From NCBI GenBank assembly GCA_003331625.1, contig QOPF01000003.1, forward strand, positions 12,355 to 76,354: 64,000 nt of DNA, given 5' to 3'. The DNA is from Gammaproteobacteria bacterium (lineage in GTDB: Bacteria > Pseudomonadota > Gammaproteobacteria > Magnimaribacterales > AG-339-G14). Positions 23,927-30,770 of the stretch are shown one piece after another (position 1 is the first letter of the stretch; each line of letters opens with the position of its first letter). Under the pieces are notes generated by a model. The model was not told where the DNA came from and made no database searches. It saw only the letters and a program-made list of their open reading frames with translations. A program made the translations under genes and the position numbers.

Positions 23927-24274
23927 TTATTCATCATCTTCGCTTGGCAAAGAGTTGAAAGGAAAAGGCCTTTCTGAACTGCTATAAGTAACGAAATCAA
24001 TTATTTGAACGATGTAATTTCTTAATTTTATTGAAAACTTAGATAAATGAGCACTAGGTTCTTTAGTAAATACCGAAAAGAGAAACTGAGCGGCAGCAAT
24101 AATCCATAAGATAAAATCTAAGAAACCTAATAAAAACAAATAAAGTATTACTAAACCGGCTGTAATCCAAGTAGATGGGTGCTTTACCTTATCAGGAATT
24201 ACATCCCTAAAAGTATTGGTTTCTTCCGTTGATGCTTCTGCTTCATCAGGTTGTTTTTTTTTATCCTCAGTCAT
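23927..24274 (-). CDS. DUF4389-like small membrane protein
   Basis: Hydrophobic helices, QFLF, C-terminal ERPFPF motif. Confidence 0.7.
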   Translation of the reverse strand: MTEDKKKQPDEAEASTEETNTFRDVIPDKVKHPSTWITAGLVILYLFLLGFLDFILWIIAAAQFLFSVFTKEPSAHLSKFSIKLRNYIVQIIDFVTYSSSERPFPFNSLPSEDDE

Positions 24275-25269
24275 TAGGTATCAATGTTACCACTTTCATT
24301 AAGAAAGTTTAAAAAACATTTTTTTGGGTTTTTATTTAAATAAATAATTTGATACAAAACATCAACTATAGGCATTTTTATTCTAAAATTATTTTTTTTT
24401 TGATAAATAACTTTTAAAGTGCCAAAACCTTCCACGGATTGGTCAATTTTATCTAATGCTTCCTTTGGGGAAATACCCTGGCCTAAAAAAAAACCAAAGG
24501 AATAATTTCTACTTTTAGTTGAGCTACTAGTAGCAATCAAATCTCCAACTCCTGATAATCCTAACAGGGTTTTTGGATTAGCTTTTATTTCTTGAAATAA
24601 ATTAGACATTTCTTTAAGAGCCCTGGTTAAAAGCATTGCCTTAGTATTAGACTCAAAGCCCAAACCATCTGAAAGCCCTGAACAAATAGCATAAAGATTT
24701 TTAAGAGCACCAGACATCTCTACTCCTTTTATATCTTGAGAAATAAAAGTCTTGAAATATTTAGTATTAAATAATTGTGATACTTTTTCTAATGTACTTA
24801 AATTCTTTCCTGCAATAACCGATGCAGATATATTTTTTCGCATTATTTCATCTGCAATATTTGGTCCTGATAAAACCATCACGCTCTTTTTTGGAAATTT
24901 AGTTTCTTGAATGAAAACTTCACTCATTGTCATAAAAGATTTTTTCTCTATCCCTTTTGTAAGAATTAATACTTTTTGATTTGTTAAGTATTTAGAAATT
25001 TTTCTAGAAAATTCCTTAAAGTATTTTGATGGAATTGCAATTATTAATAATTGCGATGAATTTATTGCTTTCTCAAGATTATTTTGAATTAACAAATTTT
25101 TTGATAATTCATAATCAGGAAGGTATTTTTTATTGTAAAGCTTATTTTTTCTTTTGATAAAAATATTTGAATTTCTATTCCAAAGAGAAACATCAAGTCC
25201 TTTTTCTGCCAATAAATTTGCTAAAGTTGTTCCCCAAGATCCTCCGCCTAAAATAGCTATTTTCTTCAT
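24274..25269 (-). CDS. gpsA: NAD(P)H-dependent glycerol-3-phosphate dehydrogenase
   Basis: GGGSWGT, TKGIE, LSGPN, GALKN and GDL.AT..S..SRN motifs. Confidence 0.95.
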   Translation of the reverse strand: MKKIAILGGGSWGTTLANLLAEKGLDVSLWNRNSNIFIKRKNKLYNKKYLPDYELSKNLLIQNNLEKAINSSQLLIIAIPSKYFKEFSRKISKYLTNQKVLILTKGIEKKSFMTMSEVFIQETKFPKKSVMVLSGPNIADEIMRKNISASVIAGKNLSTLEKVSQLFNTKYFKTFISQDIKGVEMSGALKNLYAICSGLSDGLGFESNTKAMLLTRALKEMSNLFQEIKANPKTLLGLSGVGDLIATSSSTKSRNYSFGFFLGQGISPKEALDKIDQSVEGFGTLKVIYQKKNNFRIKMPIVDVLYQIIYLNKNPKKCFLNFLNESGNIDT

Positions 25270-25274
25270 AATAG

Positions 25275-26144
25275 TTAAGAAGAAATGAATTCTTCAGCTT
25301 TTTTTCCATAAAGATCCCACCACCTATCTCCAAGGGCTTTGATAGAGTCTAAATTTCTTTTAGATGTATTATCAAATGAAGATTCAATTCCAGAAAGTTC
25401 TGAGTCTACTCTTAAATAATTTTCTTCAAATAAAGATTGTGCAATAACGTGTTCAATATTCGACTCCATAAGAATCTGTATTATCCCAGCGTTTAGCCAA
25501 GCTAAAGATCCCCATTTTCTAGCTCTCCTTCCATCAAGTCTTTTTGAGTTATATCCTGTTCCAATACTGAGAATTTTAATATCTTCATTTGGCCACAGTT
25601 TTTTTGCTTCTGAGTAGGCAATCAATACAGGGTTATTTGTAGAAACTGCTCCATCAAGATACCACTTGCCTTCTATGGACTCAGCAGGAAAATATGTAGG
25701 TGCTGCTGATGTCGCAGCGGCAACTCTTCTTGCAGGAAGATATCCTTCTTTCCAAGACTTAAACATTTTGACTCTTCTTTTTTCTAAATCAAAAGCTGTA
25801 ATAATTAAAGGAACTTTTGAGGAGCCTAAATCTTCAGCACCAAAATATTCATCAAAAGTTTTTCTTTTTATTTTACCTGCATATTTAGATCCTAATATTC
25901 TGTATCTAAAAGGAGAAAAGATTTTTTTTAGATTTTCTTTTGAATAAATTTTAACTAAATCTTCGCCTTCGAGATCTAAAATAGAAATGGCTAAAGAAAT
26001 AATACCTCCTGTAGAAGTACCAACTAGTAAGTCAAAACTCTCAGATAGCTTTTTTGGTATTTTTTTATCAAGTTTGCTCAGAAAATTTGCTGATGCTAAA
26101 CCTCTTACTCCGCCTCCGTCTATAGACAAAACATATTTAGTCAT
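25275..26144 (-). CDS. Patatin-like phospholipase
   Basis: LSIDGGGVRG oxyanion loop, GTSTG nucleophile, SAAPTYF and DGA motifs. Confidence 0.92.
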   Translation of the reverse strand: MTKYVLSIDGGGVRGLASANFLSKLDKKIPKKLSESFDLLVGTSTGGIISLAISILDLEGEDLVKIYSKENLKKIFSPFRYRILGSKYAGKIKRKTFDEYFGAEDLGSSKVPLIITAFDLEKRRVKMFKSWKEGYLPARRVAAATSAAPTYFPAESIEGKWYLDGAVSTNNPVLIAYSEAKKLWPNEDIKILSIGTGYNSKRLDGRRARKWGSLAWLNAGIIQILMESNIEHVIAQSLFEENYLRVDSELSGIESSFDNTSKRNLDSIKALGDRWWDLYGKKAEEFISS

Positions 26145-26200
26145 TGTTATTTATAGGTAAATTAAGCATATTATCATCGAAACTATACTTACTATTTAAA

Positions 26201-27640
26201 ATGAATTCATTGAGTGCTAAAAAAATAGGGTTTTGGGTAGGTTTGATTATTTTTATAGTCATTTATTTTTTACCTTCACCTTCTGATCTTTCTAACGAAG
26301 GCAAGCTAACCGCTGCGATATTCTTATTGATGGGGATATGGTGGGCTACTGAAGCAATGCCTTTATATGCTACGGCATTATTGCCCTTAATTTTTTTTCC
26401 TCTCTTGGGTATTGATCCTATTGGTATTGTAAGCAAAGAATATATGAATAAAGTCCAATTTTTATTCGCTGGTGGATTTATGATTGGAATTGCAATGCAA
26501 AAATGGGATTTACATAAAAGAATTGCACTTAACATTTTAAAATTCAGTGGGTTGCAAGCTAAAAATATAGTAGCAGCATTCATGTTAACGAGTGCAATTT
26601 TAAGTATGTGGGTTATGAATACTTCTACGGCAATAATGCTTTTACCAATAGGGATATCTGTAATTGCAGTGATAAATGAAACGGTTAAAGATATTGCACC
26701 CAAAGAAAGTAAAAACTTTCAATTTGCTCTTTTACTAGGAATTGCTTATGCAGCATCATTAGGAGGTATTTCAACTCCAATAGGAACTTCGCCGAATGGA
26801 TACTTGATTCAATATGCAAACGATAACTTTAATCAAGACATTGGCTTTATAAGCTGGCTTGCAATAGGTTTACCAGTTACTTTGGTGATGGTTCCTTTAG
26901 TTTGGTATATTTTGACCTCTTTAATTTTTCCTATCAATTTTAAAGCTTCGCCAGAAACAAACGATAAATTAAAGAGCATGCTTAAAGAACTAGGACAAAT
27001 TACTTCTGAGCAAAAAAGAGTTGCAATAATTTTTTCCATTACAGCCTTTTGCTGGGTTTTTAGAAAATTGTTAGATGACCTCCCTGGTTTATATTTTTTA
27101 GAAGACGCCGTAATAGCAATGATAGGTGGCATTTCATTATTTTTCGTAAGCTCTTCTTCTAAATCAGACTATTTACTCAATTGGGATGACTTGCAGCAAA
27201 AATTTCCCTGGGGGCTTATTTTTTTATTTGGTGGAGGTATGGCTTTAGCCTTTGAAGTAAATTCAACTGGATTAGCGTCTTGGCTTGCTAATTTGATTCC
27301 ATCTGATATCAACCCTATTTTAGTAACGGCAATGATTATTTTATTAGTTTTACTGCTAACTGAATTGACAAGCAATTTAACTACTACTATTACTTTTATG
27401 CCTGTCATTGCAAGTGTGGGATTCAACTTAGATATAAATCCTCTTCTATTAACCCTGCCTCTAACAATTGTTGCAAGTTGTGCCTTTATGTTGCCTGTAG
27501 CAACGCCGCCAAATTCAATTATTTATGCATCAAATTTAGTACCTGTTCAACAAATGGTTAGGGCTGGAATTTTTATAAACATAATTTCATTTGCATATAT
27601 TCTTCTTCTTTCAGTCTTTTATTACCCCCTAGTTATGTAG
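26201..27640 (+). CDS. SLC13/DASS family sodium:dicarboxylate or sulfate symporter
   Basis: WW.TEA, SMW..NTST, TPIGT.PN, TE..SN and AFMLPVATPPN motifs; ATG at 26201 preferred. Confidence 0.92.
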   Translation: MNSLSAKKIGFWVGLIIFIVIYFLPSPSDLSNEGKLTAAIFLLMGIWWATEAMPLYATALLPLIFFPLLGIDPIGIVSKEYMNKVQFLFAGGFMIGIAMQKWDLHKRIALNILKFSGLQAKNIVAAFMLTSAILSMWVMNTSTAIMLLPIGISVIAVINETVKDIAPKESKNFQFALLLGIAYAASLGGISTPIGTSPNGYLIQYANDNFNQDIGFISWLAIGLPVTLVMVPLVWYILTSLIFPINFKASPETNDKLKSMLKELGQITSEQKRVAIIFSITAFCWVFRKLLDDLPGLYFLEDAVIAMIGGISLFFVSSSSKSDYLLNWDDLQQKFPWGLIFLFGGGMALAFEVNSTGLASWLANLIPSDINPILVTAMIILLVLLLTELTSNLTTTITFMPVIASVGFNLDINPLLLTLPLTIVASCAFMLPVATPPNSIIYASNLVPVQQMVRAGIFINIISFAYILLLSVFYYPLVM

Positions 27641-27659
27641 TAAAATTTTGAAATAGTGT

Positions 27660-27881
27660 TGCACTAGGTTCAGCATCAGGGGTGCCTATAAAGTGCGTTT
27701 AATTATTACCCTGTGAAGGAGGTGGTCCAAATTAGTATTAACAAATTAGCAGGAATTTCAGGGGATGCCTCTTGACAACGGGTTAAACCGATTCCGACCT
27801 TTTGCCGGTTCGCCCGCATAAGGTAAGAACAAAGTTGAAATACTTTTTCTTAAGCCCCGTCAGTAATGGCGGGGTTTTTTT
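27660..27881 (+). ncRNA. Putative structured non-coding RNA (or sORF-bearing RNA) of unassigned family
   Basis: GC-richer 240-nt gap between convergent genes in an otherwise nearly gapless region; several nested helices can be drawn by hand; ends in a plus-strand terminator. Confidence 0.62.
27852..27881 (+). terminator. Intrinsic terminator
   Basis: GCCCCGTCA-GTAA-TGGCGGGGT hairpin followed by a T7 run. Confidence 0.88.
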
Positions 27882-28680
27882 ATTCGCTTAAATCGTGCCC
27901 CGAAGAAGATATGGTTCCACCATCGCAAGTGATAGTTTCACCAACTGTATAAGATCCTGCTTTAGAAGATAAATATATAGCCAAGCCACCAACATCCTCT
28001 GCTCTTCCCATTCTATGAACTGGATTTCTAGAAATTATTCCTTCATAGTTATGTTCGACCGCTGCTCCAAGCATATCACTAGGAAATGGACCAGGAGCAA
28101 TAGCATTCACTAGAATGTTTTCTTTTACAAGGCGGGCAGCAAGTACCCTGGTCATGTGATGAACTGAAGCTTTTGATGCGCTGTATGGATAAGTTTCAAA
28201 AACTGGAGTTCCAATACCGTCTATAGATCCAATATTAATAACTCTTGCAGGATCATCCTGTGAAGCCGACTTTCTTAGTAAAGGAAGAAATTTTTGAGTT
28301 GAAAAAAATACACTTTTTACGTTTAAATCCATAACTTTATCCCAGCCTCTTTCTGTAAATTTGTCAATTGGTTCGGCCCAAGCTGCTCCAGCATTGTTCA
28401 CTAAAATATCAATACTTTCTTCTAGAGACTCAACATCTCTAACGAAAGAATCAATTCCTTCTACAGACGACAAGTCAGATGGCAAGGAAATACATTGAGC
28501 ATCATATCTTTCGGATAATTCTATTGCTTTGGCATCACAAATATCTGCTTTTCTAGATGTTATATAAACTCTTGCTCCATTTGCTAAATATGCTGAGGCT
28601 ATCATTTCTCCTATACCTCTTGATCCGCCCGTAACTACAGCAACTTTATTTTTAACTGAAAAAATCTCATCAATTTTCAT
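27880..28680 (-). CDS. Short-chain dehydrogenase/reductase (RhlG/FabG-like)
   Basis: TGGSRGIG, NNAG, YSASK and NAIAPGPFPS motifs. Confidence 0.9.
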   Translation of the reverse strand: MKIDEIFSVKNKVAVVTGGSRGIGEMIASAYLANGARVYITSRKADICDAKAIELSERYDAQCISLPSDLSSVEGIDSFVRDVESLEESIDILVNNAGAAWAEPIDKFTERGWDKVMDLNVKSVFFSTQKFLPLLRKSASQDDPARVINIGSIDGIGTPVFETYPYSASKASVHHMTRVLAARLVKENILVNAIAPGPFPSDMLGAAVEHNYEGIISRNPVHRMGRAEDVGGLAIYLSSKAGSYTVGETITCDGGTISSSGHDLSE

Positions 28681-28688
28681 TGTTTCTC

Positions 28689-29018
28689 CTAATTATTGAT
28701 TTTTATAATTTTTGGCTGAACAAATTTATCATCTTTATCACAAATCATGTAACTACAAATTATAACTAGATCGCCAGCTTTTGCTTTATGAGCTGCGGCT
28801 CCATTAAGGGATATTTCTTTCTTACCTTTTTCTTCTGAAAAAGCATAGGTAATGAATCTATTGCCATTTGTAATGTTATAAATGTGTACTTGCTCAAATT
28901 CCTTTATGCCTAATTCTTCCATCCAGTTCAAATCAATTCCACAAGAACCATCGTAATCAGGATTTGTTGACGTTACTTTAACTCTGTGTAACTTAGATTT
29001 AAGAACGGTTATGAACAT
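28689..29018 (-). CDS. panD: Aspartate 1-decarboxylase
   Basis: LKSKLHR, Y.GS self-cleavage site, NG.RF.TY, LNGAAAH and GDLVII..Y motifs. Confidence 0.95.
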
Positions 29019-29026
29019 AATATTAA

Positions 29027-29105
29027 TGGCGGACCGGACGGGGCTCGAACCCGCGACCTCCGCCGTGACAGGGCGGCGTTCTAACCAGAACTGAACTACC
29101 GGTCC
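29027..29105 (-). tRNA. tRNA-Asp (GTC)
   Basis: GGACCGG/CCGGTCC acceptor stem, anticodon loop CTGTCAC, GTTCGAG, CCA. Confidence 0.96.
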
Positions 29106-29174
29106 AATTTAGGAAAACAATTATACATAGTATGAAAAGAAAGTAACTTACAAAAATGAAATCAGATAATTGTT

Positions 29175-30770
29175 TTAAATCAAAACCTTTTGATGATTTA
29201 TCCTAAATGAAATTGGTTCTAGATTTGTGTAGTTTTTTGATTTAACAGATGAGACGTACTTGAATTTTACATCAACGTAATCTGAATATATTTCGAGTTC
29301 TACATACCCTTTATTTTTTCCATCTGTCCAGACAAGATCTTTGTTAGATTCAATAGATGATTTATCGATAGCATCAGTAAATTGTCCAAAAGTATCTATA
29401 AAATTTGGCGAGGTTATTGAAGGAGCACCTATTTCAATACCTTTGAAATTTTTTTCTTTATCGAACAAATTTGAAATCCAAGAATTATGAGAATCTCCTG
29501 CAAGAACAAGATTAGATTGAGAGTTGTTTATGGCCTTATAAAACTTTTCTCTATCTTTGGGATATCCATCCCAAGAATCAGTGTTGTAGGGAATATTCTT
29601 ACCAGCCAATGATAAATATTTGTGTAAAAATTTTGGAAAATTTTCCTTATCTGCAGCTTTTAAAATATGAGGTAAGTATTTTGGTCCAATTAAAATTTGT
29701 TGGCCAAATATAGACCACTTAAAAGATTTATTAACTTTTGACCTTATCCAGTTAAATTGTTCCTTGCCGAGTAATTTTCTTGGCTTATTAAGATCTTTTA
29801 AAAAATTTACTTGGTCAAAAGAATTTTCTTTAAAATAATTTTCTATATCTAATTGTTTGTTTCTTTCATATGATCTCGTATCTAACATCATAAGATTGAT
29901 AAGATTTCCTACTTTGAAATTACGCCATATTTTGTCTTTACGACCCTTTTCACGAATTGGCATCCATTCATAATATGCCTGCAGCGCATTTTTTTTTCTC
30001 TTTGCGAAAGACCCTTCTTCATATGAATGGTTTTGAGCACCCTTCTTCCAACTATCATTTGTGAACTCATGATCATCCCAAACCGAAATCATAGGTTTTC
30101 TTTGATGTAATAGTTTTAGATCGGCATCAGATCTATATGTTGCGTACCTTTTTCTATAATCATCTAGTGATAGCATTTCATGCCTGGGGTTTACTATCCT
30201 GCCCATTTTTTCTGCATCCTTTGAACCATATCCTCCATGACCATACTCATAAAGGTAATCTCCAAGATGCAGAACTAGATTAATTTTTTCATTATTAGCT
30301 ATTTCTTTATAAGCATTAAAATATCCTGCTGGATAGTTTGAGCAACTGCAAAAAGCAATATTAAAGTTTGTTGGATTTTCTATAGGTAAAGTTGATGTCG
30401 TTCCAATTTCTGAATTTTTTCCATCAGCCAAGAATCGATAGTAAAGTTTTTTACCGTTATATTGCCTAGGAATTTTTGCATCAACTTTGACAGTATAATC
30501 GTTTTTTGAATTTGTTCTTGCATGACCAAAAGTAACCAAATTTGAAAAATTACTTAAAGTAGATACTTCCCATCTAACTCTAATTTCGGGATTGCCTATT
30601 GGTAGAATTTTTGTCCATAAAATAACGTTAGTGTTGGTCGGATCGCCACTTGCAACTCCATATTTAAAAGATATAACAGTATCTTTTTTAAAGGATGGAA
30701 AAATACGTAAGGGTAAAAATAATAAAAGTAACGCTAAGCTCTTTAAAAATTTTCTTCTGTATCTATTCAC
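29175..30770 (-). CDS. phoD: PhoD-family alkaline phosphatase/phosphodiesterase, Tat-exported
   Basis: RRKFLK twin-arginine signal, GVASGDP, HLGDY.YE, WDDHE..ND, LDTR and GDSH motifs; GTG start. Confidence 0.92.
   Translation of the reverse strand: MNRYRRKFLKSLALLLLFLPLRIFPSFKKDTVISFKYGVASGDPTNTNVILWTKILPIGNPEIRVRWEVSTLSNFSNLVTFGHARTNSKNDYTVKVDAKIPRQYNGKKLYYRFLADGKNSEIGTTSTLPIENPTNFNIAFCSCSNYPAGYFNAYKEIANNEKINLVLHLGDYLYEYGHGGYGSKDAEKMGRIVNPRHEMLSLDDYRKRYATYRSDADLKLLHQRKPMISVWDDHEFTNDSWKKGAQNHSYEEGSFAKRKKNALQAYYEWMPIREKGRKDKIWRNFKVGNLINLMMLDTRSYERNKQLDIENYFKENSFDQVNFLKDLNKPRKLLGKEQFNWIRSKVNKSFKWSIFGQQILIGPKYLPHILKAADKENFPKFLHKYLSLAGKNIPYNTDSWDGYPKDREKFYKAINNSQSNLVLAGDSHNSWISNLFDKEKNFKGIEIGAPSITSPNFIDTFGQFTDAIDKSSIESNKDLVWTDGKNKGYVELEIYSDYVDVKFKYVSSVKSKNYTNLEPISFRINHQKVLI

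Follow-up and report, generated by a model that had tools for sequence, protein, structure and literature searches.

A SAR86-specific structured small RNA with an invariant complement to the 16S rRNA tail, a candidate ribosome-docking regulator

Dual-function or short-frame small RNAs are represented by SgrS/SgrT, RNAIII/hld and SR1/SR1P, and translated leader open reading frames (ORFs) or autoregulatory initiation sites by the trpL-type attenuators, the AUU start of infC and the UGA-C site of prfB. In Bacteroidia, where ribosomes otherwise ignore Shine-Dalgarno elements, rpsU carries a strong one, according to the passages on this gene in two articles (PMC13000453, PMC7797042). Here we describe a structured small RNA from a member of the SAR86 lineage (Gammaproteobacteria), encoded in a 64,000-nucleotide (nt) window, the whole stretch of DNA that was analysed (contig C5:12355-76354 of a 1.09 Mb assembly with 11 contigs, 92.5% complete). 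The RNA gene is about 190-235 nt long, SAR86-order-specific and present in one copy per genome, and it combines an extended Shine-Dalgarno element with a 15-codon mini-frame (Table 1). We suggest, and give this roughly an even chance, that it is a ribosome-engaging regulatory RNA, acting by docking ribosomes.

The RNA resembles SgrS/SgrT, RNAIII/hld and SR1/SR1P in its independent promoter and terminator, its structured body and its short ORF with a Shine-Dalgarno element of its own. It differs from the SgrS/SgrT type in that the frame has 14 sense codons with an AUU start and no conserved peptide, and in that the Shine-Dalgarno element exceeds by far the length of every natural ribosome-binding site of the genome. 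With trpL, infC and prfB it has in common a short frame whose translation, and not the product, would matter; the AUU start is that of infC, and, as in prfB, a Shine-Dalgarno-like tract (here 27760-27765) lies few nt upstream of a UGA-C stop in a weak context. Unlike in these systems, there is no regulated gene downstream in the window's family, no terminator/anti-terminator alternative can be drawn, and neither a slippery site nor a downstream frame is conserved. The likeness to Bacteroidia rpsU, as those passages describe it, is that of a Shine-Dalgarno-poor genome with one exceptional transcript, whose very strong element would be able to sense the state of the 16S tail; rpsU, in contrast, encodes bS21 and forms an autoregulatory loop, while the present frame has no conserved protein and its host is a gammaproteobacterium.

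Table 1. Predicted features of the small-RNA locus (positions are those of the window)
Feature	Position	Strand	Description
-10 box	27641-27646	+	TAAAAT; adjoins the transporter stop codon; predicted transcription start about 27653-27657
Predicted small-RNA transcript	27655-27881	+	about 227 nt; full-length covariance-model match, 234 bits; within-genus conservation from 27655
P1, 5' hairpin	27661-27696	+	outer stem 27661-27664/27693-27696 (GCAC/GUGC), inner stem 27665-27668/27685-27688 (UAGG/CCUA); loop with conserved CAGGG
Pseudoknot	27677-27713	+	P1-loop CAGGG (27677-27681) with CCCUG (27709-27713), 4 nt 5' of the Shine-Dalgarno element
Extended Shine-Dalgarno element	27717-27729	+	AGGAGGUGGUCCA; core GGAGGUGRUC at 27718-27727
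Mini-frame	27731-27775	+	15 codons: AUU, 13 sense codons, UGA then C; reads ISINKLAGISGDAS
Three-way junction	27752-27795	+	P2, P2a, P2b
P2	27752-27757/27790-27795	+	GGAAUU with GAUUCC; 92.4% paired; 4/6 pairs changed on both sides
P2a	27759-27762/27771-27774	+	local hairpin nested in P2; 92-100% paired, one-sided changes only
P2b	27779-27790	+	small hairpin in the junction (5' strand 27780-27782); 81% paired
P3 hairpin	27798-27823	+	UUCG loop, conserved C-C mismatch; 9/10 pairs changed on both sides; 88.3% of cells paired
P4 hairpin	27825-27851	+	conserved loop GUUGARAURC; 8/9 pairs changed on both sides; families f1 and f2 only
Rho-independent terminator	27852-27881	+	11-pair stem (27852-27877), then a 7-T run adjoining the convergent dehydrogenase stop codon

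The locus occupies the longest stretch of the window that is uncovered by ORFs of at least 70 amino acids (aa), 239 nt at 27641-27879, with a GC content of 0.42 against 0.317 window-wide; a first-pass annotation, made from the sequence of the stretch, had rightly singled it out as the largest intergenic gap and as GC-rich. In 35/39 homologues the conserved RNA 5' end, (G/A)GUGUC, is preceded by a -10-like hexamer (a TATAAT match of at least 4/6, A2 and T6 included) whose last base lies 4-14 nt away. A -35 box of the TTGTCA/TTGAAA type is found at 16-17 nt in other genera and is weak in the window's genus, and for this reason the -10 box of the window was unlisted by a simple consensus promoter scan. 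Because the -10 box lies upstream of the RNA at this fixed distance, the RNA is not derived from a 3' untranslated region, one of the origins considered in the first-pass annotation. The terminator is the sole terminator-like site in 27400-28100, and across the families its stems covary (helices 7 and 8 of the model), so the plus-strand terminator of the earlier reading is retained. Several helices contain G-U pairs, which on the opposite strand would be C-A, assigning the RNA to the plus strand. This is an independent small-RNA gene: it has a promoter and an intrinsic terminator of its own, and its conservation does not depend on the flanking genes, in agreement with the earlier proposal of an independent plus-strand RNA that is non-coding or near-non-coding.

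In its own genome the region gave a single blastn match, and blastn detected it in 39/61 relatives, with 90-93% identity from 27655 on within the genus and the core kept in other families. The covariance model (R1) matched 111/151 genomes of the order, among them 49/55 genomes that are at least 90% complete, and 21/21 genera, almost always with one copy; by family, the matches were 31/40 in f1, to which the window belongs, 31/40 in f2, 36/40 in f3 and 12/30 in f4. In the class-level search the own genome was the only match, and none of the 150 others (149 from other gammaproteobacterial families and one of the SAR86 order) was matched by the model; Infernal's stricter filters were used in both the order-level and the class-level search. 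All 46 sequence-pattern matches in genome contigs belong to SAR86 or to gammaproteobacterial metagenome-assembled or single-amplified genomes.

The whole window was scanned by cmscan against Rfam 15, a library that includes IMES-1 to IMES-5, 6S, tmRNA, signal recognition particle (SRP) RNA, GcvB and CsrB/Rsm. At gathering thresholds six tRNAs only were detected, with nothing in 27641-27881, and at E up to 10 this interval gave terminator-driven matches only, of 12.6-23 bits against cut-offs of 41-99 bits. No family of Rfam 15 was matched, so a match that would remove the novelty is absent, and the structured small-RNA family is order-specific and new to Rfam. Membership in the IMES-type RNAs, an early suggestion for this locus, is rejected, as no IMES-1 to IMES-5 model matched and the IMES-5 RNA of the same genome has a separate locus. 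ARAGORN found no tRNA or tmRNA in 27000-28500, and the tmRNA, the RNase P RNA and the IMES-5 RNA of the own genome (G000) map away from the RNA. The IMES-5 RNA (RF02995) lies beside a tRNA on the minus strand at G000:C7:44699-44847 (L178:100-248) and scores 141.3 bits against a cut-off of 96.1, which places a marine IMES RNA in a SAR86 genome. A 6S RNA candidate was detected at G000:C6:12494-12665 (minus strand), with 42.5 bits just below the gathering score of 46.4.

For the analysis of covariation, a hand-drawn structure in the register of the window was given to the model and the sequences were realigned by Infernal, since some hairpins had inconsistent registers in the MAFFT alignments. 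The resulting alignment holds 40 distinct sequences from four families; being fitted to the model it favours the structure, and the slid controls carry the same bias. Paired cells amount to 85.6%, compared with 63.8% after shuffling, and in 36/43 pairs both partners have changed. Covariation scores 0.509, compared with 0.181 for the shuffled alignments (0/500 shuffles reach 0.509) and 0.066-0.120 for the slid controls. Compensatory base changes keep the helices, and both the conservation and the covariation to be expected of a structured RNA family are found.

In the 5' hairpin P1, all eight modelled pairs are changed on both sides, and paired cells amount to 75% in the outer and 93% in the inner stem (alignment A3). 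The outer stem had been drawn correctly in the first-pass annotation; its inner stem GCATC/GGTGC is replaced by UAGG/CCUA. The pseudoknot is 89.8% paired on A3, and two of its pairs have exchanged both bases (one as CG/AU/GC, the other from GC to AU in f4, where CAGAG pairs with CUCUG). Pairing of CCCUG with the downstream CAGGG (27759-27763) in place of the P1 loop was rejected, one pair being broken without compensation in 18/45 sequences. The P4 hairpin is missing from 14/14 aligned f3/f4 sequences. Of the earlier drawing, two helices are rejected and one extension is unsupported: its closing stem (27706-27715/27817-27826) has only 54% of cells paired across the homologues and clashes with the covarying P3, its arm 27779-27790/27806-27816 (CGGG/CGGTT) clashes with the supported P2b and P3, and in its AAATT/AATTT extension the AAUUU belongs to P2. 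A single-column scan for tertiary covariation was dropped as too noisy, few clades being represented.

The outstanding part of the RNA is the Shine-Dalgarno element. AAGGAGGTGGTCCA is located at 27716-27729, and the core GGAGGUGRUC is invariant in 65/65 distinct homologous sequences; GGAGGTGRTC occurs once in the genome. As the own assembly is without rRNA, the 16S tail was taken from SAR86 relatives, where it is CUGGAUCACCUCCUAA in 29/30 loci and CACCUUCU in the remaining one. With this tail the element is predicted to form 13 contiguous pairs including one G-U (-25.1 kcal/mol), the top-ranking duplex among the 17,315 purine-rich sites that the two strands of the 1.09 Mb genome hold (next site -22.0, median -8.1). 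The sole variable position of the core is A or G, and either can pair with U of the invariant 16S GAUCACC. At the level of sequence, the RNA has the complementarity to the 16S 3' tail of its organism that a 30S-binding RNA would have, and the long 16S complement reported from the first reading is borne out as the best site of the genome. Shine-Dalgarno use is low genome-wide: of 897 ATG starts, called crudely and uncurated, about 20% have a 4-mer core upstream, compared with 10% of random windows, and AGGAGG lies upstream of only 9.

The element had been described as sequestered, which is not established by the comparison. A possible masking helix with the CU-rich strand (27717-27728/27762-27773) is 86% paired on alignment A2 and 81% on A3, and its changes are almost all one-sided; the CU-rich strand varies and often mismatches, while the 10-mer is invariant. 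As this masking helix crosses P2, which covaries, the element is unpaired in the covarying fold, with about 27714-27751 single-stranded, and by comparison it is probably exposed rather than sequestered. Pairing of the element with the P4 loop, proposed by RNAalifold, is 97% paired without covariation, and P4 is absent in f3/f4, so it is not a general mechanism. Binding of the 30S subunit is the most economical account of an invariant GGAGGUGRUC with variable internal partners, and in this respect the earlier suggestion of an RNA able to bind 30S subunits is supported.

Behind the element lies a conserved frame that the first-pass annotation had overlooked. The frame starts 7-9 nt 3' of the GGAGG core, with AUU in 35 and AUC in 1 of 36 distinct versions, and all 36 are open, exactly 15 codons long and closed by UGA. 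Premature stops are found in 0/36 versions in this frame, compared with 26/36 and 36/36 in the other two frames; in the most variable block, codons 4-7 (25 distinct versions), the counts are 0 in frame 0 versus 11 and 10 in the others. For related sequences this open-frame signal is suggestive, not decisive. The frame extends into P2 and P2a, and the invariant UGA-C lies inside the junction. Selenocysteine, read-through or a +1 frameshift past the UGA was rejected, as P2b indels break every downstream frame, and so was an 18-codon ATG frame at 27766, the ATG of which is GTG or GAG in close relatives.

A tiny protein-coding gene, with the 14-residue peptide as the functional product, would account for a strong Shine-Dalgarno element at ideal spacing, for an open frame of constant length in every version, and for the nearly invariant Gly at codon 8 and the common N-terminal Ile-Ser-Ile. 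We regard it as quite improbable. Variable columns number 11/12/11 over codon positions 1/2/3, with summed entropy of 11.1/11.5/10.9, so the conserved open frame is found and the third-position excess of amino-acid purifying selection is not; because the variation is even over the codon positions, no selection on the peptide is visible. In addition, most residues differ among the families, the invariant codons coincide with P2 and P2a, the start codon is never AUG, and a 45-nt gene needs no 180 nt of covarying structure.

Our preferred account is that of a ribosome-docking RNA, in which the steps from complementarity to binding, and from the open frame to translation, are inferred. The 30S subunit would bind the exposed, super-strong Shine-Dalgarno element and so bring the weak AUU start into the P site. 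A subunit sitting there, or a ribosome translating the mini-frame slowly, would open P2 and P2a and thereby remodel the RNA. The selected property would be ribosome loading or translation itself and not the peptide, since the frame is open and of fixed length and the codons vary equally at all positions. Two outputs are candidates: tuning of the free 30S subunits or of 16S-tail-dependent translation in a Shine-Dalgarno-poor genome, and, in the two families where an EamA gene abuts the RNA downstream, control of terminator read-through into that gene. In the window's family the next gene is convergent, and any effect there would be in trans or within the RNA itself.

Several observations weigh against ribosome docking. 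The evenness of variation over codon positions, given above, is one of them, and constraints on the RNA structure could alone have left such a frame open: with columns modelled as independent, the probability of an open frame is 0.605 per sequence, the sequences being related. As a start codon AUU is poor, and the 5/5 SAR86 genomes checked encode IF3, a factor that discriminates against it. In pseudoknot-free folding the 10-mer has a mean pairing probability of 0.77, with a partner inconsistent among the homologues, and the Shine-Dalgarno element may at times be masked. Folded as a single sequence, the window copy is unexceptional (z = -1.79); the evidence for the structure is comparative. Expression was read from assembled contigs, which cannot resolve the ends, the strand or the level of a transcript, and neither gaps nor depth in their coverage are taken as evidence. 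In favour of the RNA, the locus is covered by contigs from 4 metatranscriptome studies, one of them (155 nt, 27667-27821) lying wholly inside the RNA with no differences, and part of a 1.7 kb stretch is present in 15 RNA libraries among the listed runs. Finally, on the opposing side, the layout of the locus in f3 and f4 resembles that of a 5' leader, fitting a role in cis.

The rival explanation that follows from this layout is a cis-acting 5' leader (riboswitch-like or a translated-leader attenuator), with the terminator gating EamA in f3/f4 and phoA/phoX in part of f2 and with the copy in the window's family as an orphan; we consider it rather unlikely. A pseudoknot beside a Shine-Dalgarno element, followed by a terminator, is typical riboswitch architecture, and the present RNA has this layout. 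In f3/f4, a co-oriented ORF of 283-300 aa lies 3' of the RNA in 13/14 loci, and 9/9 of those tested encode an EamA transporter. The EamA ATG is 0-15 nt past the U-run in 12/13 loci, without a Shine-Dalgarno element or room for a promoter (L139-L152), and as there is no such room EamA would have to be transcribed through the RNA. The PhoA or PhoX gene is co-oriented and 60-80 nt downstream in two f2 loci, and in the f2 genera g8 and g13 the RNA stands between a TonB receptor upstream and PhoA or PhoX downstream. The location of a leader is found in these two f2 loci and in 13/14 f3/f4 loci.

In the window, in the rest of f1 and in four f2 genera (g10, g166, g167 and g170), by contrast, the next gene is convergent, in the f1 loci seen a dehydrogenase, and the RNA is equally well conserved there. 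In the window itself the 5' neighbour is a plus-strand transporter ORF (498 aa, end at 27640) and the 3' neighbour a convergent, minus-strand short-chain dehydrogenase (SDR) ORF (266 aa, stop codon at 27880). The earlier statement that no large gene follows therefore holds for the window's own family and not for the two families with EamA 0-15 nt past the terminator. A cis role cannot explain the conservation where the downstream gene is convergent. The downstream gene also varies by family (SDR, PhoA/PhoX, PanB, EamA), panB being 3' of the RNA in g5. P3 and P4 are stable covarying hairpins rather than alternative pairings. In the alignment, variable terminator sequences stand behind constant upstream blocks, which leaves no conserved anti-terminator to be drawn, and there is one copy per genome. 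A cis-acting role is plausible in f3 and f4, and a purely cis-acting leader is unlikely in the window's family.

The repeated CAGG(A/G) motifs of the RNA suggest a Csr/Rsm-type sponge that titrates CsrA, an explanation we find hardly credible. Four CAGGR/AAGGA motifs are present (P1 loop, Shine-Dalgarno element, 27750-27756 and 27759-27765), and the own genome encodes CsrA (79 bits), with Hfq not found in it. The RNA shares with the Csr/Rsm sponges and the IMES RNAs that it is a small RNA of the abundant type with GGA-rich motifs, and that its host is marine and uncultivated. It differs in that no covariance model matched (for CsrB, CsrC, RsmX, RsmY and RsmZ at E up to 10), in the separate locus of IMES-5 and in its distribution. 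CsrA was detected in 35/40 f1, 35/40 f2, 0/40 f3 and 0/30 f4 genomes, and the RNA with the same motifs is present in 36/40 f3 and 12/30 f4 genomes. Two of the GGA motifs lie inside the helices P2 and P2a and not in loops. The sponge role is largely refuted by the persistence of the RNA in families where CsrA was not found (f3, f4). The presence of P4 parallels the CsrA split, both being found in f1/f2 and neither in f3/f4.

We also considered a base-pairing small RNA with a purine-rich seed for CU-rich mRNAs, or a divergent housekeeping RNA such as SRP RNA, and give this pair of explanations very little credence. As is usual for seeds, the 25 nt with the highest conservation are predicted to be unpaired. 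Complementary sites are not enriched, however (88 exact 11-mers and one coding-region 14-mer, which is about chance), and Hfq was not found in the own genome. The 14-nt exact complement, to 27720-27733, lies in a coding region at G000:C9:50202-50215 (plus strand), with a chance expectation of about 0.5, and is probably not meaningful.

For the SRP variant speaks that SRP RNA was undetected in 31/31 SAR86 genomes (RF00169; several single-contig genomes are among those searched), leaving one housekeeping RNA unaccounted for. At the locus, however, there is no SRP-like match (RF00169, E up to 10), and Ffh and FtsY were not found either, so an SRP RNA would be without a partner; identity with SRP RNA is rejected. 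For a housekeeping role in general, tmRNA, RNase P RNA, the 6S candidate and IMES-5 are all elsewhere in the genome. Regular-expression and hairpin scans of the genome for a 4.5S-like RNA gave coding-region matches only. The Ffh M domain (PF02978) was detected in 0/41 SAR86 genomes, compared with 23/25 other gammaproteobacterial families, the SRP54 GTPase domain (PF00448) gave 3 weak partial matches in the 41 SAR86 genomes, and three Ffh proteins gave no tblastn match in the own genome. The absence of SRP from SAR86 was noted tentatively in the relevant passages of Dupont et al. 2012 (PMC3358033), which also list IF3 and PheS as missing. Both of these are present, in the usual infC-pheS neighbourhood, in 5/5 current genomes (G000:C4:124545-126356; G017, G041, G043, G045), so that these gaps of 2012, unlike that of the SRP genes, were assembly artefacts.

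A variant of ribosome docking would be an abundant decoy acting in trans. Its exposed 13-nt complement would trap 30S subunits by their 16S 3' tail, with a near-inert AUU as the start, and in this way the decoy would set the pool of free or hibernating ribosomes, or shift translation between the few Shine-Dalgarno-led mRNAs and the many that lack such an element. Such a decoy would have originated in SAR86 only and would perhaps be part of a remodelled translation and targeting apparatus, as this order is the sole group of free-living bacteria among those searched here in which no component of the SRP pathway (Ffh, FtsY, 4.5S RNA) was found; we think it distinctly unlikely.

For ribosome docking in the wider sense, an invariant 10-13-nt 16S complement, a weak AUU and a frame kept open but free in sequence together suggest a device whose role would be to sense or adjust the state of the ribosome pool rather than to yield a product, and, if so, the RNA would be a natural example of RNA-level control via the 16S tail. 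In the surface ocean SAR86 counts among the most abundant bacterial lineages, and its streamlined genomes encode few regulators; a core structured RNA confined to this lineage is therefore a likely central regulator of SAR86 cells. The covariance model and the alignment allow annotation in hundreds of marine genomes and quantification in existing metatranscriptomes.

In the passages of Dupont et al. 2012 that concern it (PMC3358033), an 'abundant non-coding RNA' of SAR86A/B is placed in a locus with glycolysis and glucose-uptake genes, and its first sighting is credited to the metatranscriptomes of Shi et al. 2009. The present RNA may be the same one, and the family may then give a name and a structure to the 'abundant non-coding RNA' noted in 2009-2012. 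Both are SAR86 small RNAs seen in marine metatranscriptomes, and the setting fits genus g10, where a sugar-utilisation locus surrounds the RNA, its neighbours being pyruvate kinase, two MFS sugar transporters, a GH3 glycosidase and TonB receptors. On the other hand, the IMES-5 RNA of the window's own genome could be the RNA meant, and those passages give no structure, Shine-Dalgarno element, frame or mechanism. The literature search, run outside supplements such as Supplementary Figure S5 of Dupont et al., gave no description of the structure of this RNA, and none of a 16S-tail-binding RNA from SAR86.

Genes of the phosphate-scavenging type recur near the RNA (window 24274-30770; L060, L044), including the PhoA/PhoX genes directly downstream in the two f2 loci. 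No Pho box was recognised by eye in the promoter alignment. In the window, a PhoD gene, named from its translation by eye, was detected at 29175-30770 on the minus strand, and patatin-like and GpsA-like ORFs lie upstream.

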